From: Desulfobacterales bacterium
GTDB lineage: Bacteria > Desulfobacterota > Desulfobacteria > Desulfobacterales > SpSt-501
Length of the DNA stretch: 64,000 nt
Direction of reading: 5' to 3'
NCBI GenBank assembly: GCA_030834695.1
Contig: JAUQXK010000089.1
Span: 192,174 to 256,173, forward strand
Within the stretch, counting starts at the first letter, position 1; each line of letters starts with the position of its first letter. Below are positions 13,845-64,000 of the stretch, piece by piece. Position numbers and translations under genes: made by a program. The notes under the pieces were generated by a model, which was not told where the DNA came from, did no database searches, and saw only the letters and a list, made by a program, of their open reading frames with translations.

Positions 13845-15158
13845 ATGGCAAAACACAAAACCCCTATGCTGGACCAATTGGAAAGCGGTCCGTGGCCGAG
13901 CTTTGTGTCGGACCTGAAGGAGTTGGCCGAACATCGCGCGAAAACTGCATCAAAAATCGACTACCAGATTCCGGTCGAAGTGGTTGAAGACGTTCTCGGT
14001 CTCATGGAGCTTACCTACAAGCATGGCCGCACCCATTGGAAGCACGGCGGCATCGTCGGCGTTTTCGGTTACGGCGGCGGCGTTATCGGCCGTTACTGCG
14101 ATATGCCGGAGGAGTTTCCGGGCGTCGCCCATTTCCACACCATGCGCGTCAGCCAGCCCGGCGGCAAGTTCTACACCTCGAAATATCTGCTCGAGCTATG
14201 CGACCTGTGGGACCTCCGCGGCAGCGGCATCACCAACATGCACGGGTCCACCGGCGACATCGTCTTCCTGGGGACCACCACTCCGCAGCTCGAAGAGATT
14301 TTCTTTGAGCTGACTCACAAGATGAACCAGGATCTCGGCGGTTCAGGCTCCAACCTGCGCACCCCTTCCGACTGCATTGGAACAGCCCGCTGCGAATTCT
14401 CCTGCTACGACACGCAGGCGCTGTGTTTCACCCTGACCAATGATTACCAGGACGAGCTGCACCGGCCGGCCTTTCCTTACAAATTCAAATTCAAATTCGA
14501 CGGCTGCCCGAACTGCTGCGTCGCCTCCATCGCCCGTTCCGACATGTCCTTCATCGGTACCTGGCGGGACGACATCCGCATCGACCAGGAAGCGGTCCAG
14601 GGTTACATCGGCGGTGAATTCGCTCCGAACGGCGGCGCCCACAAAGACCGCGACTGGGGCAAATTCGACATCAAGAAAGAGGTCATCGACCTCTGCCCCA
14701 CCGAATGCATGTGGATGGAAGGCAAGAAGCTCAAGATCGACAGCAAGGAATGCAACCGCTGCATGCACTGCATCAACGTGATGCCCCGCGCACTGAGGAT
14801 CGGACAAGACACAGGGTTGTCCATCCTGGTGGGCGCCAAGGCCCCCATTCTCGACGGCGCCCAGATGGGTTCGCTGCTCGTCCCCTTCGTCAAAGTGGAG
14901 GAGCCCTACGACGAGATCAAAGAAGTCATCGAGAAGATCTGGGATTGGTGGATGGAAGAGGGCAAGAACCGCGAGCGCCTCGGCGAGCTGATCAAGCGCC
15001 AGGGCTTCCAGAAGATTCTGGAAGTGACCGGCATTACGCCTGATGCGCGCCACGTCAAAGAGCCTCGGTCCAACCCCTACATCTTCTGGAAGGAAGAAGA
15101 AGTCGAGGGCGGCTGGACGCGCGACGTCAACGAATTCAGAAAATACCATCGCAGATAA
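13845..15158 (+). CDS. dsrA: dissimilatory sulfite reductase alpha subunit
   Basis: MAKHKTPMLDQLESGPWPSFV N-terminus, HWKHGGIVGVFGYGGGVIGRY, siroheme/FeS Cys clusters (CIGTARCEFSC, DGCPNCC) and a ferredoxin-like insert (CPTECMW...CNRCMHC). Confidence 0.97.
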   Translation: MAKHKTPMLDQLESGPWPSFVSDLKELAEHRAKTASKIDYQIPVEVVEDVLGLMELTYKHGRTHWKHGGIVGVFGYGGGVIGRYCDMPEEFPGVAHFHTMRVSQPGGKFYTSKYLLELCDLWDLRGSGITNMHGSTGDIVFLGTTTPQLEEIFFELTHKMNQDLGGSGSNLRTPSDCIGTARCEFSCYDTQALCFTLTNDYQDELHRPAFPYKFKFKFDGCPNCCVASIARSDMSFIGTWRDDIRIDQEAVQGYIGGEFAPNGGAHKDRDWGKFDIKKEVIDLCPTECMWMEGKKLKIDSKECNRCMHCINVMPRALRIGQDTGLSILVGAKAPILDGAQMGSLLVPFVKVEEPYDEIKEVIEKIWDWWMEEGKNRERLGELIKRQGFQKILEVTGITPDARHVKEPRSNPYIFWKEEEVEGGWTRDVNEFRKYHRR

Positions 15159-15170
15159 GGGGGACGAACT

Positions 15171-16316
15171 ATGGCATTTATATCTTCAGGATACGATCCC
15201 AAAGAGCCGATGAAAAATCGCATCACGGACATCGGCCCGCGCAAATACGACGAATTCTATCCGCCGGTCATTGCCAAGAACAAGGGCCAATGGCTGTATC
15301 ATGAAATCCTCAAGCCCGGCGTGCTGGTCCACGTGGCCGAGTCCGGCGACAAGATCTTTTCCATCCGCGTCGGCGGCGCGCGTCTCATGAGCACCCTGCT
15401 CATCCGCGAGATTGCCGAAATCGCCGACAAGCACTGCGGCGGCTATGTGCGCTGGACCACCCGCAACAACGTCGAGTTCATGGTCGACGACGAAAAGAAG
15501 GTCGAGCCCCTGCTGAAGGACCTGGCCGGCCGCAAGTTCAAGGGCGGCAGCTTCAAGTTCCCGGTCGGCGGAACCGGCGCCGGCGTTACCAACATCGTCC
15601 ACACTCAGGGGTGGATGCACTGCCACACCCCGGCCACCGACGCCTCCGGCCCGGTCAAGGCCACCATGGACGTGCTCTTCGAGGACTTCCAGAAGATGCG
15701 GCTGCCGGCCCAGCTGCGCGTGTCGCTGGCCTGCTGTCTCAACATGTGCGGCGCCGTGCACTGCTCGGACATCGCCATCCTGGGCTACCATCGCAAGCCG
15801 CCCATGCTGGACCATGAGTACCTCGACAAGATGTGCGAGATTCCCCTCGCCATCGCGGCCTGCCCGACCGCGGCCATCAAGCCGGCCAAGATCGAAGTCG
15901 GCGGCCAGAAGGTCAACAGCGTCGCCGTCAACAACGAGCGCTGCATGTTCTGCGGCAACTGCTACACCATGTGCCCGGCTATGCCGCTGGCCGACAAGGA
16001 AGGCGACGGCATCGTCATCATGGCGGGCGGCAAGGTGTCCAACCGCATTTCGCCCCCAAAGTTCTCCAAGGTCGTCGTGGCCTTTATCGAGAACGAGCCG
16101 CCGCGCTGGCCCAAGACCACCCAGGTCATCAAGAAGATGGTCGACGTCTACTCGCAGGATGCCCGCAAATACGAGCGCCTCGGCGAGTGGGCCGAGCGCA
16201 TCGGGTGGGAGCGCTTCTTCGAGAAATGCGAGATCCCGTTCACGCACCACCTGATCGATGATTTCCGGGATCCGGCCTATTACACCTGGCGCCAGACCAC
16301 GCAGTTCAAGTTCTAG
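15171..16316 (+). CDS. dsrB: dissimilatory sulfite reductase beta subunit
   Basis: [53 protein letters not shown]-terminal [12 protein letters not shown]. Confidence 0.97.
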
Positions 16317-16333
16317 ACCGTCTGGATGGAATG

Positions 16334-16358
16334 GGGGGCACCCGGAAGGGGTGCCCCC
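16334..16358 (+). terminator. GC-rich intercistronic hairpin between dsrB and dsrD
   Basis: GGGGGCACCC (16334-16343) pairs with GGGTGCCCCC (16349-16358) around a 5-nt loop, followed by TTCACTTT. It could be a partial terminator or an mRNA-stabilising hairpin. Confidence 0.45.
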
Positions 16359-16384
16359 TTCACTTTAAGAAAAAGAGGTAACCC

Positions 16385-16624
16385 ATGGATTACGCGGAAG
16401 CGAAGGTCAGAATAGTTGAAGGACTCACCAAGAAGCTCAAGACCAAATCCAAGTTTTACTTCAACGATCTGGCCGAGATTCTGGAGATGAAGCCCCGCGA
16501 GGCCAAGAAGCTGATCAACGACATGGTGGCCGACGGTACGCTGGAATATTGGTCCAGCGGCAGCACCTCCATGTACGGCCTCAAGGGAACCGGCAAACAG
16601 GCGGCTGCAGAGCACGAAGAATAG
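16385..16624 (+). CDS. dsrD: DsrD, small winged-helix dissimilatory sulfite reductase-associated protein
   Basis: 79 aa directly after dsrB. KSKFYFNDL...KKLINDMVADGTLEYWSSGSTSMYGLKG is typical of DsrD. Confidence 0.92.
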   Translation: MDYAEAKVRIVEGLTKKLKTKSKFYFNDLAEILEMKPREAKKLINDMVADGTLEYWSSGSTSMYGLKGTGKQAAAEHEE

Positions 16625-16671
16625 AACCGTCCGGTTTGCGGCGGTTTTTCGGTCTCTCCCGGCAATTATCG

Positions 16672-18099
16672 ATGCAGCTTCGTGAAGCGGAATTCCCCCG
16701 GCTGATCATCGCCGCCCTGCGCGGCGGTTCGGGCAAGACCATCGTATCGATCGGAATCACCGCGGCGTTGCGCGCGCGGGGAAAATCCGTCGCCCCTTTC
16801 AAAAAAGGTCCGGATTATATCGATGCGGGCTGGCTTGCCCTGGCGGCAGGCCGGCCCTGCTATAATCTAGACACCTTCCTTTTGAACGCGGACCTGATCC
16901 GAAGTTCGTTCTGCACCCATGCCTCCCCCGCGGATGTGGCGCTCATCGAGGGTAACCGCGGCCTCTACGACGGCATCGATCTGGAAGGCGCCACCAGCAC
17001 GGCCGAACTGGCCAAGCTCCTGAAGGCTCCGGTGGTGATGTGCGTCGATTGCACCAAGACCACCCGCACCATGGCCGCCGTCATGGACGGGTGCGTGCGC
17101 TTCGATCCGGAGGTGATGGTGCGGGGGGTGATCCTCAATCACGTGGCCGGTGCGCGCCATGAATCCATCCTGCGGCGCAGCATCGAGCATTTCAGCGGGG
17201 TTCCGGTCATCGGCGCGATCCCCAAACTCGACCGTCCGGTTTTTCCGGAGCGCCACATGGGCCTGGTGCCCACCGTCGAGCACGCTTGGGCCGCAGACTC
17301 GATCCAGGCCATCGGCCGCACCGCCGCTCAGCACATCGATTTGGATGCACTGATGCGGCTCGCGCAAGCCGCCCCTCCGGTCGAAGCGGTATGCGAACCC
17401 TTGGCCATCGAGCGGCCCGACAGAGCGGCCGCAGCCGTCGAACCACCGGTCGCCCGGATCGGCGTCCTGCGGGATTCCGCATTTCAGTTCTACTATCCTG
17501 AAAACATCGAAGCTCTCGAAGCGGCGGGGGCGCAGATTGTTTTCGTCAGCCCGCTGCGGGAAAAAAGCCTGGCGGAAATCGACGCGCTTTACATCGGCGG
17601 CGGCTTCCCGGAAACCCACGCGCAGGAGCTTGCCGAAAACAGGTCTTTCAGCGACAGCATCCGGGCGCTGGCATCGGCCGGGCTGCCGGTTTATGCCGAA
17701 TGCGGCGGCCTTATGTACCTGGGCGAAGAGCTGGTTCTCGAGGGGAAGAGCTATGCCATGGCCGGCGTCCTGCCGCTGGCTTTCGGTTTGTTCAAGCGGC
17801 CCCAGGGACACGGCTACACCGTGGTTTCGGTCGAGCGCACCAACCCCTACTATCCGATAGGGGCTGAAATCCGCGGTCACGAGTTTCACTACTCGCGCGT
17901 GCTGAGATGGTCCGGAGCGGAGGACGATTTCGTTTTCCGCATGCAACGCGGCGTCGGCATACACGGCGACCGGGACGGGCTTCTTTACAAGAATGTTCTG
18001 GCCACCTACACTCACATTCACGCCCTTGGAAATCCAGGCTGGGCAGGCGCACTGGTTCGCAATGCGGTCGCTTTCCGATCCCAGAGATCCCATACCTAA
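16672..18099 (+). CDS. dsrN: cobyrinic acid a,c-diamide synthase homologue in dsr context (DsrN, proposed siroheme amidase)
   Basis: Start at ATG 16672 (MQLREAEFPRLIIAALRGGSGKT P-loop). KKGPDYID, C-terminal GATase domain with AECGGLMYL. Position after dsrABD matches described dsrABDN loci. Confidence 0.85.
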   Translation: MQLREAEFPRLIIAALRGGSGKTIVSIGITAALRARGKSVAPFKKGPDYIDAGWLALAAGRPCYNLDTFLLNADLIRSSFCTHASPADVALIEGNRGLYDGIDLEGATSTAELAKLLKAPVVMCVDCTKTTRTMAAVMDGCVRFDPEVMVRGVILNHVAGARHESILRRSIEHFSGVPVIGAIPKLDRPVFPERHMGLVPTVEHAWAADSIQAIGRTAAQHIDLDALMRLAQAAPPVEAVCEPLAIERPDRAAAAVEPPVARIGVLRDSAFQFYYPENIEALEAAGAQIVFVSPLREKSLAEIDALYIGGGFPETHAQELAENRSFSDSIRALASAGLPVYAECGGLMYLGEELVLEGKSYAMAGVLPLAFGLFKRPQGHGYTVVSVERTNPYYPIGAEIRGHEFHYSRVLRWSGAEDDFVFRMQRGVGIHGDRDGLLYKNVLATYTHIHALGNPGWAGALVRNAVAFRSQRSHT

Positions 18100-18187
18100 G
18101 TTTGAATCTGCGGAAACCCTTCGTCGCCGCTCCTTGAACCGGATCGGCGGGCGCCGCTGCGCTCCCGCCGATCTTATCCGGGGGCTG

Positions 18188-18910
18188 ATGCGCGATCTGA
18201 ACCTATCCCGCGGACAGGTGCAGGCGGGCCTGCATGAGCTGGTGGCCGAGGGAGAACTCGCTTACGTTTTCGAGCACGGACAAACTTTTCTTGAGCCATC
18301 CTTCGATCGGCCGGTGCGCGTGTCCGACCGCGTCGTGTTGACTCCGCCCGAGCGAACCTATCCGGCCGGCCCCGCGGATGTGCTCATCCGGATCATTCCC
18401 GGTGCCGCATTCGGCGCCGGCCGCCACCCCACCACTCGACTGGCGCTGAAGGCCATCGATTTCATTCTGGGGAGCGCCGGCGGATCGTCGGCAGGTGCCC
18501 GCCGCAGGATGCTCGACATCGGTACCGGCAGCGGGGTGCTGGCGATGGCGGGGGTGATGCTGGGTATCGAAACCGGCCTGGCCGTCGATATCGACCCCTG
18601 CGCCGTGGCGGAGGCCAGGGCGAACGTGGAGCTCAACAGCCTGAGCCGGCAGATAGCCGTTTCCGATCAAGCGGCAGAGGCCATCGACGGCAGCTACGAT
18701 CTGGTGACCGCCAACCTGCGCACCCCCACCCTGGCGCGCCTGGCGCCCTGTCTCGCCGGCTGGACGGCACCGCAGGGGGCGCTGGTAATATCGGGGATCC
18801 GCACCGAGGAGTGCGACGAGCTTCTGGGCGAGCTTGAAAAGCGGTTTTTCAATACCGTGTGGCGGGATGAAGAGCAGGAGTGGGTGGGACTTGCGCTCAC
18901 GAGGAAATGA
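18188..18910 (+). CDS. PrmA-like SAM-dependent methyltransferase with N-terminal winged-helix-like segment
   Basis: GRHPTTRLAL, DIGTGSGVLAMAG, DIDPCAV, VTANL motifs of the PrmA class. The start is uncertain: the ORF is open from 17993, and a TTG at 18134 would include more of the helix-turn-helix-like segment. Confidence 0.75.
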   Translation: MRDLNLSRGQVQAGLHELVAEGELAYVFEHGQTFLEPSFDRPVRVSDRVVLTPPERTYPAGPADVLIRIIPGAAFGAGRHPTTRLALKAIDFILGSAGGSSAGARRRMLDIGTGSGVLAMAGVMLGIETGLAVDIDPCAVAEARANVELNSLSRQIAVSDQAAEAIDGSYDLVTANLRTPTLARLAPCLAGWTAPQGALVISGIRTEECDELLGELEKRFFNTVWRDEEQEWVGLALTRK

Positions 18911-18916
18911 CCGGAA

Positions 18917-18954
18917 GATTTCTCGCTTCGCTCGAGACGACATGATAGCGGGTC
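18917..18954 (-). repeat. 38-nt repeat, copy 2 (inverted partner of 13466-13503)
   Basis: Reverse complement GACCCGCTATCATGTCGTCTCGAGCGAAGCGAGAAATC. It starts 7 nt after the methyltransferase stop. Confidence 0.7.
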
Positions 18955-18988
18955 TTGTCCGGGTCCATCAATGAGATGGTACCAATTA

Positions 18989-19024
18989 AAAACGGCGGGC
19001 ATCTTTGGGATGCCCGCCGTTTCA
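18989..19024. terminator. bidirectional rho-independent terminator (cytochrome c3 / methyltransferase)
   Basis: 13-bp arms AACGGCGGGCATC (18991-19003) and GATGCCCGCCGTT (19010-19022). An A-run lies 5' and T residues 3', giving TTTTT on the minus-sense transcript. Confidence 0.7.
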
Positions 19025-19052
19025 ATATTCCGGTCAAATTATCTAAGACACA

Positions 19053-19523
19053 TCAGCTTTTCTTCGGATGGCAGTCGTTGCAGGTCACCGGGGCTTTTTT
19101 GGCCGGCTTGAATTCCTTGTTGTAATCCCGGTGGCAGCCCTGGCAGTTGTCATGGTAGGCCTCGGCGATGAATTCCAGCTTGGCCTTCTTTTCGAGCTTC
19201 GGCGCGTCCTTGCCTTTGGGGGCCTCGCCGCACTTCTTGTGGCACTCAAAGCATTTCTGGACCTTGCTGTCGGCGGTCAGGCCGGCGATGGGCTTGCCCT
19301 TGTCGTCGTGATGGCAGTCGCCGCAGCCGTTGGGGTAAAGTTTGGCAAACTGTTTGGCGTATTCCTCGGAGTGCTTCTTGTGGCTGAACTGAATCTCGCC
19401 CTTGGTGTTCTGGCAGCCCTTGTTTTCGACTTTGACGACATCGGCCACCTTGGCGTAGATCCCGCCAGCAAAGAATAAGCACGCCACCGCAATCATCACC
19501 GCTACCGCCATTTTTTTCCTCAT
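19053..19523 (-). CDS. tetraheme cytochrome c3 (class III), periplasmic
   Basis: Signal peptide plus four CxxCH heme sites (CGDCH, CFECH, CQGCH, CNDCH) and additional axial His residues. Lys-rich. Confidence 0.9.
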   Translation of the reverse strand: MRKKMAVAVMIAVACLFFAGGIYAKVADVVKVENKGCQNTKGEIQFSHKKHSEEYAKQFAKLYPNGCGDCHHDDKGKPIAGLTADSKVQKCFECHKKCGEAPKGKDAPKLEKKAKLEFIAEAYHDNCQGCHRDYNKEFKPAKKAPVTCNDCHPKKS

Positions 19524-19662
19524 AGCCTCTTCCTCCGCCTCCTTTGAGTTATTGGTTCATGCCTGCCGGCAGTACAATGACCCAACTCAATGAATAAGAA
19601 TTTTTATCAAGGAAGCCTCAAGCTGTCAATGGCCATTTGCATCCCGAATCGGGCCCGGCAGG

Positions 19663-20427
19663 TCAGACCGGATGCGATTCGGAGGCCTCTGCCGCGCCTT
19701 TCTTGCGGTTCACAACGTGGGCGCCCAAGATGCCGATTTCATAAAGCACCGTCAACGGAATGGCCATCAGAATCATGGAGACCACGTCCGGCGTCAAGAA
19801 CGCCCCGACCACGAAGGCCAGGATGACGGCGTACTTGCGGTTGCGTTTCAAATATTCAACGGAGACGATCCCCAGACGGGCCAGGCCGGTCAGGGCCACC
19901 GGAAGCTCGAACAGCAGCCCGAAGATGAACAGCAGCTTGGTGCTGAAATCGAGGTATTCGCGCATGGACGGCAAGGTGCGGATAAAATCGGCGCCGAAGC
20001 TCAGCAGGAATTTGAAGCCGGACGGGAACACCACGAAATAACCGAACAGGGCGCCGCCGATGAAAAAGAAGGATGTAACGGCGATGATCGGCCCCAGCAC
20101 CCGGCGTTCTTTCTGGTAAAGCCCCGGGGCCACGAACATCCAGAACTGGTAGAGCAGGACCGGGCTCGCCAGGATGATCCCGGCTAAAAAGGAAACCTTC
20201 AGGTAAGTAAAGAATGCTTCGGGGATTCCCGTAAAAATCAGTTTTCCGCCTTCCGGCATGACCCGGATGAGCGGGTAAAGCAGGATCTCGAAAAGCGTTT
20301 CCTTAAATGCATAGCAGAGGCCGAAGCCGGCGCCGACGGCGATGAAACTCTTGATCAGCCGCGACCGCAGCTCTTCAAGATGGACGGTGAAAGGCAGTTT
20401 TTCATCCTCGTGCATCATCCGCTTCAC
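19663..20427 (-). CDS. tatC: twin-arginine translocase subunit TatC
   Basis: HLEELRSRL start, six TM pattern, FVAPGLY, FGLLFELP motifs. Confidence 0.93.
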   Translation of the reverse strand: MKRMMHEDEKLPFTVHLEELRSRLIKSFIAVGAGFGLCYAFKETLFEILLYPLIRVMPEGGKLIFTGIPEAFFTYLKVSFLAGIILASPVLLYQFWMFVAPGLYQKERRVLGPIIAVTSFFFIGGALFGYFVVFPSGFKFLLSFGADFIRTLPSMREYLDFSTKLLFIFGLLFELPVALTGLARLGIVSVEYLKRNRKYAVILAFVVGAFLTPDVVSMILMAIPLTVLYEIGILGAHVVNRKKGAAEASESHPV

Positions 20428-20453
20428 ACTCGACCTCTGGTCTGGCAGCTCTT

Positions 20454-20924
20454 TCAGCCGGACCGGGGCTTATCCGCTGAAGGTTTCTGGCCCGACTGCG
20501 GCGCCGGCGTTTCGGAGGGCGGCGGGCTAGCCGGTGCCGGCCCGGCATTCCAGGCTTGGAACGCTTTCTTCAGTTCATCCAGCTTGTCGGTCGAAGCGGG
20601 CTCGGCGGGTGCCGGATCGGCCGGGGCCGCCTCCGGTGCCGGAGCGTCAGCGGCGGCCTGGGACGGCCCGGCGGGTTGGGTCTCGGTCTTGGCTTCAGGC
20701 TGGATGGTCTTGTTGACGTCGGATTCAAAGTCGTTGAAGGCCTTCTTGACCTCGTTGAACTCGCCGTCGACCTGCAAGGTCTCCTTCAATTCACTGGTGG
20801 CTTTTCGGAATTCGCGCACGGCACGTCCCATGGATTTGGCCAGGTCCGGCAGTTTTTTCGGGCCGAGGACGATCAACGCCACCACGGCAATCAGAATCAA
20901 TTCCGGCATGCCGATGCCAAACAT
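20454..20924 (-). CDS. twin-arginine translocase TatA/TatB-family protein with long Pro/Ala-rich tail
   Basis: Start at ATG 20924 (MFGIGMPELILIAVVALIVLGPKKLP; AGGGGG SD). 156 aa suggests TatB-like. The upstream part of the listed ORF lies in a repeat element. Confidence 0.85.
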   Translation of the reverse strand: MFGIGMPELILIAVVALIVLGPKKLPDLAKSMGRAVREFRKATSELKETLQVDGEFNEVKKAFNDFESDVNKTIQPEAKTETQPAGPSQAAADAPAPEAAPADPAPAEPASTDKLDELKKAFQAWNAGPAPASPPPSETPAPQSGQKPSADKPRSG

Positions 20925-20987
20925 AGGAGCCCCCTGAAGCATGGACGCCGCTTGCGCCCGCGGTGCGACCTGCCCATACGGACTTAC

Positions 20988-21137
20988 TAATCGTCTCGAA
21001 ATAGTACCGTCATGCCGGACGTGATCCGGCATCCAGAACGGGTTGAATTCACTGGATTCCGGCTAAAAGCCTGCCCCGGAAATCGGTAATCCGGGGCAGG
21101 CCGGAATGACGACGTAAAGACAATTCTGAGACCCTTA
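20988..21137 (+). mobile_element. MITE-like element, copy A (shortest form, about 146 bp plus TA flanks)
   Basis: Imperfect terminal inverted repeats: ATCGTCTCGAAATAG... versus the reverse complement of ...CAATTCTGAGACCCT. TA flanks both ends. Internal hairpins ATGCCGGA/TCCGGCAT and CCTGCCCCGGA/TCCGGGGCAGG. Homologous to 23105-23278 and 37166-37366. Confidence 0.6.
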
Positions 21138-54778: not shown

Positions 54779-56515
54779 TCATTTCTTCGAAGCCAGCTTG
54801 AGGTAGTTGGCATAAAGCCGGGGGTGGACCCGGGAGTGGCGATCGAAATCGGCCAGGATTTCCATACCCGGCACGATCGCACGCACCACCGGCAGCCCGA
54901 TGTCGCTGCGGGTGAGATCGGCGTAGATCAGGCGGAATCCGTTGGCGAGCAGAAGCGTTTCCATCGTCCGCAGATCCTCTTCGGGGGCACCGCAGGCATA
55001 ATTGGGCAAGGCTTCGACCGGCACGCGTACCAGCCCCTCCATGGCCGGCTGCGACGACGGTCCGCCGGGATATGGAAAAGGGGTTTCGGTGAGCGCTGCG
55101 AGCAGGGCCCGCCGAGCGTCCAGGTGTGCGCCCGTGCCCTTGGCGATCCGGCCGTCGGCGGCCGCTACGAAACATTTGCAGCAGGGCATCCCCATGGCGG
55201 GCGTCAGGTCCTGGAACTGGAGGTGGATCCCGTTGGTGCGATAGCTCTCCAGCAGGGCCGCCAAACGCTCATCCCGGGTTTCGATTTCAAAACAAAGCGC
55301 ACGGTCGAAGGGGGTCGTTCCCTCGCAGTCCCTCTCGACAACCTCGCTCAGCGCGCTGAGCCTGGCCCCTGCCATCGTCACGCCGGCGCCCAATCCGGTG
55401 GAACCCAGGGCCGAGAAAAGCTTGATCTCGTCCAGGTTGCAGAAAAGAAACACGCACTGGGCCGGGATGAATACCGATCGGGATCCGGCCAGGGTCTGCT
55501 CCTGGGCTTCCAGCCAGTAAAGCGGCTCGTCCCGGTATGGCGCCTCCAGGGCCAGGCCGTTGGGGTCGAGCGCCGCCACCTGATCCCTGCGCAGGTCCGA
55601 GAGGCGGCCGTGAACCACGTTCGGGGGATCGGCGTATCCGGACGGGCCCCGGCCATCGAAGCTGGCGAAGGATGAGCAGCGCTCGACCACCTCCATGGCA
55701 CAGGCCGCCCGCGCCGCCTCGAAATCGATCCCCCGGCCGTAGGCCGTGAGCTCTCCCGAGAGCGCCAAATCATGCCGGCCGCTGCTGACCGCGGTTTTCA
55801 TCTGCCAGCGTCTCAGCAGAGCGATCGGACTGAGCGAAGCGGTGTGGCGCATCTCGTTTCCGACGGTTACACCGGCCTGGCGCAGCCGCTCCAGGGCCAG
55901 GGCGTGCACTTGCTCCGGGCCGAGCGCCGGCGCAACGGCCTTCTCCGAAAGCGGCCGGGATTGCTCAAAGAGCTGCTTCAACGTCGCACGCGGTTCCAGG
56001 AGCTTTTTGATGCTGGTTTCGGAGACCGGCGCCGCCCATCCGATGGCCGCCGAGTCCGGCAGCGGCCGGTGTTCAAGAATGTTTTCGCGGAAAAGCGCGA
56101 TCCAGTTTCGGTGTCGGCCGCGATCCCTGAGGAGATGCGATTTGAGGTCAATCAGGGGAGTGTGCGCTGCAAGCGACTTGAGCTTTTTCAGGGGAAAATT
56201 CCGCTGATATTTCTTCGGATGGGGGAGGACCTGGGACGCCTCCCACAGCAGCGCCTGGAGAAACCCGTCCTCCGGGTCGAGCTCTGCAACGCACTGTTTC
56301 AAACGAAGCTCGTCCCATCCCCGAATGATGCGCAAAAGATGCCTGCGCATGAACTCGTCGTTGGGGCGGCGGCGAGCGTAAGCCAGGAAGTTCTCATAAC
56401 CGAGATCCATCCCGGGGATGCACCCAAAATACCCCGTTGCCGACTCCGTGGTCAGCAGGCGCAGCTCATAAGTTATTTTTTGGGGACCGGGTTGTACCAT
56501 ATCAGCCGGAAGCAA
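54779..56515 (-). CDS. YcaO-domain protein with about 195-aa N-terminal extension
   Basis: YGRGIDFEAARAACAMEVVERCSSF and STGLGAGVTMAGARLSALSEVVERD correspond to YcaO ATP/Mg motifs (compare E. coli NGKGATKKAALASALGEYFER and SEVFERY). RAIVPGME near the C-terminus. Start is TTG 56515 or ATG 56500. Confidence 0.85.
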   Translation of the reverse strand: MLPADMVQPGPQKITYELRLLTTESATGYFGCIPGMDLGYENFLAYARRRPNDEFMRRHLLRIIRGWDELRLKQCVAELDPEDGFLQALLWEASQVLPHPKKYQRNFPLKKLKSLAAHTPLIDLKSHLLRDRGRHRNWIALFRENILEHRPLPDSAAIGWAAPVSETSIKKLLEPRATLKQLFEQSRPLSEKAVAPALGPEQVHALALERLRQAGVTVGNEMRHTASLSPIALLRRWQMKTAVSSGRHDLALSGELTAYGRGIDFEAARAACAMEVVERCSSFASFDGRGPSGYADPPNVVHGRLSDLRRDQVAALDPNGLALEAPYRDEPLYWLEAQEQTLAGSRSVFIPAQCVFLFCNLDEIKLFSALGSTGLGAGVTMAGARLSALSEVVERDCEGTTPFDRALCFEIETRDERLAALLESYRTNGIHLQFQDLTPAMGMPCCKCFVAAADGRIAKGTGAHLDARRALLAALTETPFPYPGGPSSQPAMEGLVRVPVEALPNYACGAPEEDLRTMETLLLANGFRLIYADLTRSDIGLPVVRAIVPGMEILADFDRHSRVHPRLYANYLKLASKK

Positions 56516-56566: not shown

Positions 56567-56605
56567 CCTCCCTTTTCCGCCCTTTGAAAAAGGGGGCCGG
56601 GGGAT
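56567..56605. repeat. short palindromic unit of the CCCTTTxAAAAGGG-CCGGGGGAT family
   Basis: CCTCCCTTTTCCGCCCTTTGAAAAAGGGGGCCGGGGGAT. Related to the units at 41069-41208 and 39479-39525. Confidence 0.55.
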
Positions 56606-56762
56606 GTTGAAATCGGCCTTTTCGGAAATTAGCAGACTCAATCCATTAAAGCCAATTCTTTCAACACCTCGCAAACAGGTCCGGCTGCATTGGCGCGTCC
56701 CGGTTGGATGGTTATCTTCGATCCGAATCGGCTTTGTTTCATCTCGACCCAGGAGGAATACC

Positions 56763-57527
56763 ATGAAGAACCGATCCGCAGTTTTCCTGTTGGCATTGCT
56801 GGGAGTTCTTGGCTCCGGCCGGCTGGCGGATGCCCAGCCGGGAGCGCTTTCATCGGGCGCTCCCCTGCCACCCGAGAAGGGGGTGCCGCCCATCGACGCC
56901 GTCGTGCCGGATCATCTGGCGACGGCCACGTTTGCTCTGGGCTGATTTTGGGGCCCGGACTCCAGGTTCGGAGTCCTGGACGGCGTGGTCCGGACGCGGG
57001 TCGGGTACGCGGGCGGAACCCGCGAGAACCCGACTTACCATCATCTGGGCGACCACGCCGAAACCCTTCAGATCGATTATGATCCCGAGCGCATCAGTTT
57101 CGAAAGACTGCTTGAGTACTTTTGGAGCGAGCACGATCCGACGAGCAGGGCCTGGTCCACGCAGTACAAGGCGGTCGTCTTTTACCACAGCGACGATCAG
57201 AAACGCCTGGCCGAGGAATCCCGGGACCGCCTGGCGGCGAAGCTCAAACGGCGCGTGTTCACCGAGGTGACCCCCTTCAGCCGGTTCTATCCGGCCGAGG
57301 CCTATCACCAGAAGTACTACCTGCGCCAGAACAGGCGACTGCTGCAGGAAATGCAGCGCTACTATATGCAAGACGCCAAGCTGATGAACTCCACCGCCGC
57401 CGCCCGCGTCAACGGATATCTCGGCCGCTTCGGAACGGCCGAGGGGCTCAAGGTCGAGATCGATCGGTTGGGCCTCTCCGAAGACGCCAGGCGGGAATTG
57501 CAGGAAACGGTTGGGGCCGGAAGCTAA
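56763..57527 (+). CDS. msrA: peptide-methionine (S)-S-oxide reductase MsrA with signal peptide and in-frame TGA (probable selenocysteine) at the catalytic position
   Basis: ATG 56763 with GGAGG SD. Same frame as ORF 56985-57527. TGA at 56943-56945 falls in ATFALG-U-FWG, the GCFWG catalytic motif. Downstream RVGYAGGTRENPTYHHLGDHAETLQIDYDP...YHQKYY is colinear with MsrA. Confidence 0.8.
56955..56979 (+). promoter_or_regulatory. SECIS-like hairpin downstream of the msrA TGA
   Basis: GGACTCC (56957-56963) / GGAGTCC (56970-56976) stem with AGGTTC loop. It can be extended by CC/GG with a bulged T. It begins about 10 nt after the TGA. Confidence 0.55.
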
Positions 57528-57636: not shown

Positions 57637-58374
57637 TCAGGGACTCGCGGCGAATAGCGGATAGGCATCGATAGGCGTCATGTCCCTCGCCCGGAGCAGC
57701 ATGAAATGCAGGTGGGTGGGGGATCGGGCCGGGTAGGCATTGGTTCCGGTGCGGCCCAGGGCTGCGATCAACGAACCGCCGCGCACGTTTTCGCCCAAGC
57801 CGACGCGGATGTCCTGAAGATGGGCGTAGTAGGAGAATATCTCGAGGGCGGGGTGATAGATCCAGACATAGTTGCCGCCCCGGATATGCCGGTGCGCTTC
57901 ATCCGGCGCCCACTCCTCGAAAACCGAGAGGACCACGCCGTCCGCCAGGGCCAGGACCTCTGCCGGCCGGCCGGTGCGGTCGTCCAGCCCGTCCTGATTG
58001 CGGTCACGAATGAAAATGTCCTGGGCCGGGTGGCCCTTGTGGCGGTTGCCGCCTAAAAACTCATAGCCCCCCGGCTGGTAACCTTCCCCGTTTTTGCCTC
58101 CGATCGACGGAACCCCATGGCCTCTTAGCGGGAAAAAGATCCGTCGGCCAAACCGTTCGGAGTCGTAGAGTTGCTCCAGGGCCTCGGCCCAGTGCGAGAT
58201 TTGGGCTCGGCCATCAGCCAGGCTCATCTCGCCGTCCCGCACGCGCCGCTCGAACTGCTGCCAGCCGCCGCTGCCATGAGTATCGTCGGCGAGGCAACGG
58301 CCGTGAGTGATCAGTAAAAGGCAGAGCACTGCCAGCCGGCACATCCGGCGTTGGTTCCAGGAACAGCGCTTCAA
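57637..58374 (-). CDS. M23 family metallopeptidase, secreted
   Basis: Signal-like N-terminus. HKGHPAQD (HxxxD) and SPTHLHF (HxH) motifs. ATGA overlap with the upstream gene. Confidence 0.85.
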   Translation of the reverse strand: MKRCSWNQRRMCRLAVLCLLLITHGRCLADDTHGSGGWQQFERRVRDGEMSLADGRAQISHWAEALEQLYDSERFGRRIFFPLRGHGVPSIGGKNGEGYQPGGYEFLGGNRHKGHPAQDIFIRDRNQDGLDDRTGRPAEVLALADGVVLSVFEEWAPDEAHRHIRGGNYVWIYHPALEIFSYYAHLQDIRVGLGENVRGGSLIAALGRTGTNAYPARSPTHLHFMLLRARDMTPIDAYPLFAASP

Positions 58375-58994
58375 GCGAAGATGCTTTCAGCCAGTTCCCG
58401 GCGCAGCCGCCGGGAGTGTTCTTCGATGGTGGCGAGGATCGCCGCAGCGCCCTCGGTGGCGGCCATTCGGGGTTTCAAGGCGGTGTAGAAGTCTTTTTCG
58501 ACCGTATTCAGCCGATTGAGGGTCAGCAGCAGGTTGGTGCGGTTGCGGTAGGCCGAGCGCACCAGGGTTTCAAAGCTGTCGCCGTTTGCGGCCAACAGGT
58601 CCGTGTAGTGGTCGACCAGCGCCTTCAGCCAGCAGGCGTAGGGCCGTTCCAAGTCATCCGCCAGGCCGGATTGCCGGGCGATTTGATCGATGTTCGGCTT
58701 GACCTCCGCCGTCAAGGCCTCGACCGCCAAGTCCACGGCTTTCCGACGGGTGGTCATGAACTCCCGGTCGAAGTTCATGCGGCCGGTCTTGTACCTCTGC
58801 ATACGGTAAACGAAGTATAGGAACAGCAGCGGGACGAGCACCATCCAGAAATTGACCTTGGGTTTCTCGAACACTGCGGCGCCAATGGCGTTGGCGAACA
58901 GCAGCTCGTGCTGGAGGATCCACTCTTTTTTGCGTTCCAGGCCCTTCATGGGTATCCGGTGATGGTTAAGAATCGGGTGCGATCGGGCGACCAA
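58371..58994 (-). CDS. hypothetical membrane protein
   Basis: One TM hairpin region (NFWMVLVPLLFLYFVY) then a helical domain. Start uncertain (TTG 58994 or ATG 58949). Confidence 0.55.
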   Translation of the reverse strand: MVARSHPILNHHRIPMKGLERKKEWILQHELLFANAIGAAVFEKPKVNFWMVLVPLLFLYFVYRMQRYKTGRMNFDREFMTTRRKAVDLAVEALTAEVKPNIDQIARQSGLADDLERPYACWLKALVDHYTDLLAANGDSFETLVRSAYRNRTNLLLTLNRLNTVEKDFYTALKPRMAATEGAAAILATIEEHSRRLRRELAESIFA

Positions 58995-63448: not shown

Positions 63449-63547
63449 CAAGATGCTGGATACGAGATACGGGATGCTTGATGAAAAACCATGCCCCCTT
63501 ATTTTTTATCCAGTATCGCGCATCCAGTATCCCGTATCGCTTCATCC
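63449..63547. repeat. cluster of 10-nt GATACNGGAT-type words in opposite orientations upstream of the response-regulator gene
   Basis: GGATACGAGATACGGGAT (63458-63475) on one strand. ATCCAGTATC x2 and ATCCCGTATC (63508-63538) on the other. Confidence 0.5.
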
Positions 63548-64000
63548 GTTGCATCGCCCGGCCATCGCCACCCAGCCCTCTTTCTGCCGGATTTCGAGAA
63601 TATCAAAACCCTTGCCCATCATATGGTCGATGACGAGGTCCTTGCCTTGTTCGATGATCCCCGAGCAGATGAATATGCCGCCGGGTTTGAGCAGGCGCGC
63701 GACGTCGCCGAGCAGTTCGATGACGACATGGGTGAGGATGTTGGCGGCCACCAGATCGAACCGGCCCCGGAACGGTGCGGCCAAGGATCCCTGGGCCAGG
63801 CAGACCCGGCGCCGTTCGATCCCGTTGCGCCGCAGGTTTTCGGCCGCAACGCGCACGGCCATCTCGTCGCGGTCTCCGCCGCACAGCTGCCCTGCTCCGA
63901 GCTTGGCCGCGGCCAGCAGGAGGATGCCCGAACCGGTGCCGATGTCCAGAAACGAGTCGCCGGTTTTCAGGTGGCGCTCGATCAACTGCACGCAGAGGGC
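63542..64000 (-). CDS. prmA: ribosomal protein L11 methyltransferase (PrmA), N-terminus beyond window end
   Basis: The frame is open to position 64000 (ALCVQLIERHL...). DIGTGSGILLLAA, VAANIL, LKPGGIFICSGI, C-terminal GWVAMAG. Confidence 0.8.
   Translation of the reverse strand, partial: ALCVQLIERHLKTGDSFLDIGTGSGILLLAAAKLGAGQLCGGDRDEMAVRVAAENLRRNGIERRRVCLAQGSLAAPFRGRFDLVAANILTHVVIELLGDVARLLKPGGIFICSGIIEQGKDLVIDHMMGKGFDILEIRQKEGWVAMAGRCNG

Follow-up and report, generated by a model that had tools for sequence, protein, structure and literature searches.

The 64,000-nucleotide stretch of contig JAUQXK010000089.1 analysed here (hereafter, the window) contains at positions 56763–57527 a gene for methionine sulfoxide reductase A (MsrA) in which the codon of the catalytic residue is an in-frame TGA. 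We have little doubt that this is a genuine MsrA with selenocysteine (Sec) in its active site (Sec-MsrA). The initial annotation of this DNA had proposed that TGA replaces the catalytic Cys codon of a selenocysteine MsrA, and our analysis bears this out: 77 of 78 related sequences have TGA at the same codon, and a hairpin of the selenocysteine insertion sequence (SECIS) type lies downstream of it. It is also very likely that the whole of 56763–57527 is one functional gene, encoding a 254-residue, probably exported MsrA precursor of the "1-Cys/1-Sec plus helical domain" type represented by the Clostridium oremlandii enzyme (CoMsrA). Peptide-methionine (S)-S-oxide reductase activity is assigned to the predicted protein by its family membership.

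The direct translation of the + strand gave a single frame at 56763–57527 that is interrupted once, by the TGA at 56943–56945. The open reading frames (ORFs) 56604–56945 and 56985–57527 lie in the same frame and are separated solely by this TGA. The translation confirmed both the coordinates and the description given earlier, according to which the two ORFs yield one protein of 254 amino acids (aa) when the TGA is read through. The product of 254 codons starts at ATG 56763, terminates at TAA 57525–57527 and has no Cys codon. It reads MKNRSAVFLLALLGVLGSGRLADA QPGALSSGAPLPPEKGVPPIDAVVPDHLATATFALG-[TGA]-FWGPDSRFGVLDGVVRTRVGYAGG...AEAYHQKYY...GAGS, with TATFALG directly before the TGA. The ATG at 56604 was considered as the start and rejected, as the protein before MKNR is unconserved among the relatives and a stop lies just upstream in the related locus L001. 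The features of the gene are the following:

56690..56718, + strand: putative promoter (TTGGCG 56690–56695, 17-nt spacer, TATCTT 56713–56718), proposed from conserved blocks
56751..56756, + strand: Shine-Dalgarno (SD) sequence AGGAGG, 6 nt 5' of ATG 56763
56763..56834, + strand: predicted signal peptide, residues 1–24, with the n-h-c layout MKNRS, AVFLLALLGVLG, SGRLADA and a predicted signal-peptidase I site between ADA and QP
56835..56921, + strand: variable Pro/Ser/Gly-rich linker, residues 25–53, ending in the conserved (V/L)PPID (upstream peptide alignment)
56922..57338, + strand: MsrA catalytic domain (PMSR), residues 54–192, with the G-U-FWG active site (PF01625, TIGR00401, PDB 4U66/7C13)
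56943..56945, + strand: TGA codon 61, catalytic selenocysteine (alignment with CoMsrA Sec16; TGA in relatives)
56955..56979, + strand: hairpin with the 7-bp stem GGACUCC/GGAGUCC, two outer pairs and the loop AGGUUC at 56964–56969 (folding)
57369..57482, + strand: C-terminal helical domain, Pfam match of residues 203–240 (PF20939, selenoprotein MsrA helical domain)
57525..57527, + strand: TAA stop of the full-length gene

The SD sequence is also present in L161 (CAGGAGGAATACCATG), a locus lying in synteny on a 429-kb contig from ERZ25039459, and in other relatives. Further upstream, a block consisting of TGGCGC, 12 or 13 nt and ATGGTTATCTT is kept before msrA in the relatives, and the sequence of the spacer varies. 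Judging from these blocks, TTGGCG and TATCTT at 56690–56718 are probably the −35 and −10 elements of msrA's own promoter; the match scores under the threshold of the consensus scan.

The profile searches were run with Cys substituted for the stop. The protein matched PF01625 (PMSR) over residues 54–192 with 153.5 bits (cut-off 23.7, E 6.6e-45), covering profile positions 1–150 of 153, and TIGR00401 (NCBIfam msrA) with 133.6 bits versus a cut-off of 108.1. The match to PF20939 was marginal (24.7 bits versus a cut-off of 23.7); by the CoMsrA alignment, the helical domain spans approximately residues 190–254. The best solved structures were those of C. oremlandii MsrA (7C13, 4U66, 4LWJ, 4LWK and 4LWM; E ~1e-54, the best being 7e-55). 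Residues 51–245 of the query align with residues 6–200 of the CoMsrA chain, and about half of these 195 positions are identical. TGA codon 61 is aligned to CoMsrA residue 16, which is the native Sec and appears as Cys16 in the Sec-to-Cys crystal forms, and E100 is aligned to the catalytic E55. The active-site motif FALG-[TGA]-FWGPD occupies codons 57–66. Both the Pfam and the PDB alignments agree with the earlier statement that the frame is colinear with MsrA and that the TGA stands at the Cys of the GCFWG active site.

Relatives were collected from metagenomes using the C-terminal part of the protein alone as bait. The active-site motif was present in 76 of the 80 loci obtained, and the catalytic codon was TGA in 75 of these and TGC in one. 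When the window and L001 are counted together with the 76 metagenome loci, 77 of the 78 sequences with the motif have TGA at the catalytic codon, at identities of 53–89%, a pattern well beyond chance. Both frames are intact in the TGA-bearing relatives, which show no further disruptions, and conservation extends to TATFALG and FWGPDSRFG on either side of the codon. It had been suggested earlier that aligned relatives be inspected for Cys or Sec at this column, TGC in the relatives together with further disruptions in this copy being regarded as the sign of a pseudogene; what the alignment revealed was TGA and undisrupted frames. Among the species-representative genomes, the closest match came from an uncultured Desulfatibacillum sp. 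metagenome-assembled genome (MAG), whose protein has 83% identity over residues 1–246 and whose gene has the TGA as well. At 81% identity, L161 shares the TGA, the SD sequence and the signal peptide with the window gene. In the Cys forms, which are more distant (L002–L080), the catalytic column has TGC or TGT. It should be noted that the scan of species-representative genomes used the pattern TFALGCFW, which returned almost only Cys forms, and its output is unusable for a Sec/Cys ratio. No Cys was present downstream of Sec in 60 of the 68 Sec-form relatives. The loci L157 and L158 encode an MsrB-MsrA fusion with the TGA in the MsrA half (FAMG-[TGA]-FWGPD), and the upstream frame there ends with an MsrB C-terminus (HLGHVFTDGP...RYCINSAALRF).

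The protein databases point in the same direction. Among the 120 best database matches, 91 are fragments of 155–184 aa that begin just past the TGA position, which suggests that the relatives have the same stop. On the 429-kb contig, the gene was split by the caller into ORFs of 60 and 180 aa. The expectation that standard gene callers would miss such a gene was thus well founded.

The hairpin at 56955–56979 begins 12 nt past the UGA, and its apical loop lies 18 nt after the UGA, at 22–27 nt when counted from the U of that codon. The folding energy is −14.8 kcal/mol (z −2.6), and 4 of 200 dinucleotide shuffles were as stable. The published model of the bacterial SECIS (bSECIS) has a loop of 3–9 nt, an upper stem of 4–16 bp, a spacing of 16–37 nt and a minimum free energy (MFE) of −7.5 kcal/mol or lower, with G in the loop's first two positions and G or U thereafter (PMC13188914, Fig. 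2A). Compared with this model directly and not via bSECISearch, the hairpin lies within all four published ranges (loop 6 nt, stem 7 bp, spacing 18 nt and the energy given above) and has G-G-U in the loop. Like the consensus bSECIS, it sits within the coding sequence directly past the UGA and has G and then G/U at loop positions 2–3, with SelB binding predicted. It has no sequence similarity to the SECIS of Escherichia coli fdhF except for the G-U of the loop.

The region that forms the hairpin also encodes the conserved PDSRFGVL, and synonymous codons were resampled from each gene's own usage. All 43 unique Sec-form segments formed a hairpin with the apical loop enclosing G-U at nt 24–25. The mean hairpin energy of these Sec forms was −10.5 kcal/mol versus −5.6 kcal/mol in the synonymous shuffles (p ≤ 0.05 in 32 of them). 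The corresponding means for the 80 Cys forms were −6.4 and −5.3 kcal/mol (p ≤ 0.05 in 9), and GU was found at the loop position in 36 of the 80, compared with 43/43 in the Sec forms. The loop in the Sec forms starts at nt 22–24 from the U of the UGA and always has GUU. Meanwhile, the stems vary by subclade (GGACUCC/GGAGUCC, GAUGCCC/GGG(G)C(C)AUC and CUCCC/GGGAG). Pair types were counted by rank from the loop in place of an alignment-based consensus, and each stem rank had 2–5 standard pair types among the Sec forms. The hairpin is maintained by selection beyond what the protein sequence imposes.

A strong SECIS-like hairpin, at codons 4–12 after TGC/TGT, is also kept in the closest Cys-type homologues (L005–L009, L011, L021 and L155), which come from Dehalococcoidia, Desulfobacterales and Syntrophobacterales MAGs. 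For the Cys form L007 the hairpin energy is −19.5 kcal/mol, a stability that none of 300 synonymous shuffles reached. These hairpins may be relics of a recent Sec-to-Cys conversion, or they may have a second role.

Signal peptides were judged heuristically, by hydropathy and the AxA rule. The N-terminus of the window protein comprises the positively charged MKNRS and a hydrophobic core of 12 residues, and its n-h-c layout, together with the small residues at −1/−3, is conserved in close relatives; the linker that follows varies. A strongly hydrophobic N-terminal 12-mer was found in 65 of the 70 assessable unique Sec-form relatives. Among these 65, an RRxFxK-like twin-arginine motif was present in 23 and a lipobox-like LxAC in 16. 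The exceptions were contig-edge truncations, the short, cytoplasmic-looking L159 and the MsrB-MsrA fusion L157. As judged by these rules, the N-terminal signal peptide described in the initial annotation was recovered, and the window MsrA is probably exported. The accompanying remark that an exported Sec-MsrA would be unusual did not hold, as apparent export is the rule within the clade (65/70). The more distant Sec-form MsrAs (L117–L143 and others) have N-termini like MDSNRRVLVKGLG...FLNAC, with twin-arginine-like and lipobox-like motifs. The selenoenzyme of the L117–L143-type lineages may, to judge from these motifs, be exported folded via the twin-arginine translocation (Tat) route and lipid-anchored.

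Of the alternatives, the one that survives best concerns the location of the protein: the Sec-MsrA would not be released to the periplasm, being held by an uncleaved membrane anchor (on either face) or having a non-functional signal. The reliance on hydropathy and the AxA rule leaves room for it, as do L159 and the fusion L157, which have no signal, and the fact that no periplasmic reductant gene is linked to msrA. In addition, CoMsrA, the sole characterised member of the type, is cytoplasmic and reduced by glutaredoxin (PMC4479559). We nevertheless consider it unlikely. The n-h-c layout is classical and its small −3/−1 residues are conserved across the relatives; the twin-arginine and lipobox-like N-termini of distant Sec-form members are a different device for the same destination; and N-termini of the signal or lipoprotein kind are found in the clade's Cys-type homologues too.

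Several results weigh against an exported Sec-MsrA and have to be set beside the evidence given so far. The heuristics on which the export call is based have already been mentioned. The genes selA, selB, selC (tRNA-Sec) and selD were not found in the 64-kb window by ARAGORN, Rfam and Pfam/NCBIfam searches of approximately 50 genes. The Sec competence of the organism is therefore presumed from the features of the gene itself and from the prevalence of Sec in sulfate-reducing Deltaproteobacteria, in which the Sec machinery and several selenoproteins are common (PMC1794560; Desulfococcus multivorans, PMC5109826). A crude in-frame-TGA screen, which is insensitive to Sec codons near gene ends, picked up only adjacent same-frame genes and no second selenoprotein gene in the window. 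Neighbour clustering of 82 loci showed no redox partner (thioredoxin (Trx)-like, DsbD/CcdA or glutaredoxin (Grx)) conserved within 2.5 kb of msrA. As to the hairpin, the 74 nt that follow the TGA showed no significant MFE as a whole (z −1.46), and the MFE of nt 10–45 versus synonymous shuffles separated the Sec from the Cys forms weakly, because GC-rich sequence folds in many ways. Given 33 Sec-form segments aligned without gaps, RNAalifold returned a weak consensus of −2.1 kcal/mol that lacked compensatory pairs and missed the hairpin, as the register of the hairpin shifts by 1–3 nt between subclades.

The remaining explanations deny selenocysteine itself. A nonsense mutation from TGC/TGT to TGA that killed an ordinary Cys-type msrA would likewise leave a single in-frame stop at the catalytic codon, and the Sec machinery not being seen in the 64-kb window fits such a pseudogene. 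This is very improbable, given that relatives as distant as 53% identity share the TGA and are otherwise undisrupted, that the hairpin past it is under selection, and that the SD sequence and the upstream promoter-like motif are conserved. Moreover, the differences among ten close relatives upstream of the TGA are distributed over codon positions 1/2/3 as 396/332/795. This third-position bias, found over the upstream 60 codons, indicates coding constraint on a translated sequence.

Two separate products, a secreted peptide of 60 residues ending at the TGA and a truncated MsrA-like protein of 180 residues starting from GTG 56985, would correspond exactly to the split given by Prodigal-type callers (P0001; the 60-aa and 180-aa ORFs on the 429-kb contig). 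The form of 180 residues, however, would have neither the catalytic residue nor the first beta-strand and GxFWG motif of the PMSR fold, for which the Pfam match begins at residue 54. The 39 nt from the TGA to the GTG encode the invariant FWGPDSRFG in frame, and the Cys-type homologues are colinear across the TGA point. We therefore give this arrangement hardly any credence.

The protein entries P0036, P0043, P0044 and P0046 from JGI read FALGWFWGPD, with Trp at the Sec column; these are apparently best explained by translation of the TGA with an alternative code table during gene calling. They are what speaks for the UGA being read as Cys, Trp or Gly, via near-cognate decoding or a reassigned code, which is most improbable. 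TGA is the stop of 24 of the 45 domain-supported genes in the window, so that the genetic code is standard; an enzyme with Trp or Gly as its catalytic residue would be dead; and the SECIS-type hairpin goes specifically with the TGA forms. The conservation of the TGA, the coding constraint and the stop usage together exclude, for practical purposes, the pseudogene, the two-gene arrangement and the reassigned code.

For the Sec-MsrA, we propose the following course of events. SelB and Sec-tRNA(Sec), recruited by the hairpin that presents G-G-U in its apical loop, would insert selenocysteine at the UGA of codon 61. The selenolate would attack methionine-S-sulfoxide, releasing methionine and forming a selenenic acid. 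Since the protein has no cysteine, an external reductant would have to regenerate the enzyme. The 24-residue signal peptide, which is of the Sec (secretory) type, would be cleaved between ADA and QP, and such a signal makes work in the periplasm of a dsrAB-carrying sulfate reducer most likely for the mature selenoenzyme. Its role there may be the repair of envelope proteins oxidised after exposure to oxygen or oxidants.

The surroundings of the gene were examined by domain scans of the window, whose G+C content is 60%. No tRNA was found in it by ARAGORN and no family by Rfam at gathering thresholds, and genes for Trx, DsbD, CcdA, Grx and MsrB were not detected among approximately 50 genes using Pfam and NCBIfam. 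The msrA gene stands alone, with a YcaO gene divergent upstream and an M23 peptidase gene convergent downstream. The other genes of relevance are listed below in the order of their coordinates:

13845..15158: dsrA (TIGR02064 above cut-off), in the dsr cluster at 13845–21032
15171..16316: dsrB (TIGR02066 above cut-off), in the dsr cluster
16549..18099: CobB/CobQ-like (dsrN-like) gene, in the dsr cluster (domain scan)
17993..18910, + strand: first PrmA-like gene (ribosomal protein L11 methyltransferase family)
19053..19523, − strand: class III cytochrome c
19663..20427, − strand: tatC
20454..21032, − strand: tatA/B
54779..56515, − strand: YcaO-domain protein of 578 residues, divergent from msrA (domain scan)
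57637..58374, − strand: M23 peptidase, convergent to msrA (Pfam)
58371..58994, − strand: protein of 207 residues matching NF038143 ("HYxxLL", an uncharacterised NCBIfam family) with 192 bits and no Pfam domain
63542..63991, − strand: second PrmA-like gene, running off the right end of the window

From the dsr cluster, the organism is recognised as a reducer of sulfate or sulfite, and the source of the window is a sulfate-reducing member of the Desulfobacterota close to Desulfatibacillum. The YcaO gene is absent at the otherwise syntenic L161, where an EamA gene directly precedes msrA; this points to a lineage-specific insertion or loss. The NF038143 gene lies between the M23 peptidase gene and a gene for a YeiH-family transporter of 606 residues, and this arrangement is kept in L161. 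Across the 82 loci, the clustering revealed no partner gene of any kind conserved beside msrA. A Tat-signal aldo/keto reductase gene was found near msrA in 17 of the 82 loci; it is oriented convergently, which indicates synteny and not an operon. Two PrmA-like genes were present within the one 64-kb window.

The Sec-MsrA family and its recoding mechanism are already established, and a Pfam domain is named after the selenoprotein form. The initial annotation had held that Sec-MsrA is known in only a few organisms; it is in fact a recognised bacterial family (PMC1794560, PMC1976440, PMC13188914), and its relatives are abundant in sediment and wetland metagenomes. A predominance of exported Sec-MsrA was not found described in the searchable literature, and neither was a discussion of how a cysteine-free selenoenzyme is recycled outside the cytoplasm. 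A broader proposal, to which we give no more weight than to its opposite, is that the main natural form of Sec-MsrA is an extracytoplasmic clade common in anaerobic sediment bacteria and not the cytoplasmic clostridial enzyme, and that this form would need a yet-to-be-found way of reducing the selenenic acid outside the cytoplasm. The members of this clade have secretory Sec-type signals, as in the window protein, or twin-arginine/lipoprotein-type signals in other subclades, and most of them have no cysteine at all.

The glutaredoxin/glutathione (GSH) route is not expected in the periplasm. Together with the lack of cysteine in the protein and of a linked Trx, DsbD or CcdA gene, this means that another route of selenenic acid reduction would be needed outside the cytoplasm. 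If the broader proposal is true, the reductant could be, for example, a thioredoxin-like selenoprotein that stands alone; a cycle of diselenide dimers and, in sulfate reducers, sulfide itself are further candidates. Positions 144–249 of the NCBIfam family NF041383 ("VPGUxxT family thioredoxin-like (seleno)protein, type 2") match the MsrA domain with E 3e-10, far below the cut-off. From this match, the family seems to be a Trx-like selenoprotein fused to MsrA, and a stand-alone relative of it could be a candidate reductant of the exported Sec-MsrA.

The window gene and hundreds of its relatives stand in public databases as fragments of 175–180 residues that lack the catalytic residue, or else with Trp in the place of Sec. 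As a consequence of such misannotation, the selenoproteomes and the periplasmic oxidative-stress defences of sulfate reducers are under-counted. The near-universal apparent export in the clade raises the question by which reductant strict anaerobes recycle a selenoenzyme without cysteine in their periplasm. The finding is thus a useful correction of annotation and a lead on periplasmic selenoenzyme recycling, and not a new kind of system.

Among the known systems, Sec-MsrAs of Deltaproteobacteria appear in selenoproteome surveys, with an entry for Syntrophobacter fumaroxidans in 2006 (PMC1794560, Table 3) and entries for two deltaproteobacterial symbionts of Olavius algarvensis in 2007 (PMC1976440); a 2026 review gives GUFWG/H as the motif of Sec-MsrA (PMC13188914). 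The window protein shares with the survey-listed proteins the family, the broad lineage (anaerobic sulfate reducers and syntrophs) and the same logic of Cys/Sec pairs plus SECIS. They differ in that the surveys give the family as a table entry only, and the parts of the selenoproteome literature that were consulted do not discuss their export.

The closest characterised enzyme is CoMsrA, a native selenoprotein with a catalytic domain (1–144) and a helical domain (145–209) not seen in other MsrA structures (PMC4479559). It has no cysteine ("1-Cys type"), shows approximately 20-fold higher activity as the Sec form than as the Cys form, and depends for its recycling on glutaredoxin and not on thioredoxin (PMC4479559). 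The window protein resembles it in having Sec at the same GUFWG position, the catalytic Glu and the PF20939 helical domain, and in belonging to the same "1-Cys/1-Sec" class, with no cysteine and so without a resolving Cys. CoMsrA, in contrast, is a cytoplasmic protein of 209 residues with its Sec at position 16, from the Gram-positive Clostridium (Alkaliphilus) oremlandii OhILAs, whereas the window protein comes from a diderm sulfate reducer and has about 50 additional N-terminal residues (signal peptide, Pro/Ser-rich linker and PPID).

The characterised exported Msr enzymes include Neisseria Trx-MsrAB (PilB), Haemophilus influenzae MsrAB and Streptococcus pneumoniae MsrAB2 (PMC13488963). They are mostly Cys-type MsrA-MsrB fusions that receive electrons from a fused or dedicated Trx via DsbD/CcdA (PMC13488963). 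Unlike them, the window protein consists of one MsrA domain that has Sec and lacks a resolving Cys, and no gene for Trx, DsbD or CcdA is linked to its own. What it has in common with them is an MsrA-fold domain that carries a signal or lipoprotein signal and an extracytoplasmic location, the signal and the location being predictions for the window protein. Predicted exported selenoproteins are also known in other families (bioRxiv 10.1101/2022.07.06.499078).

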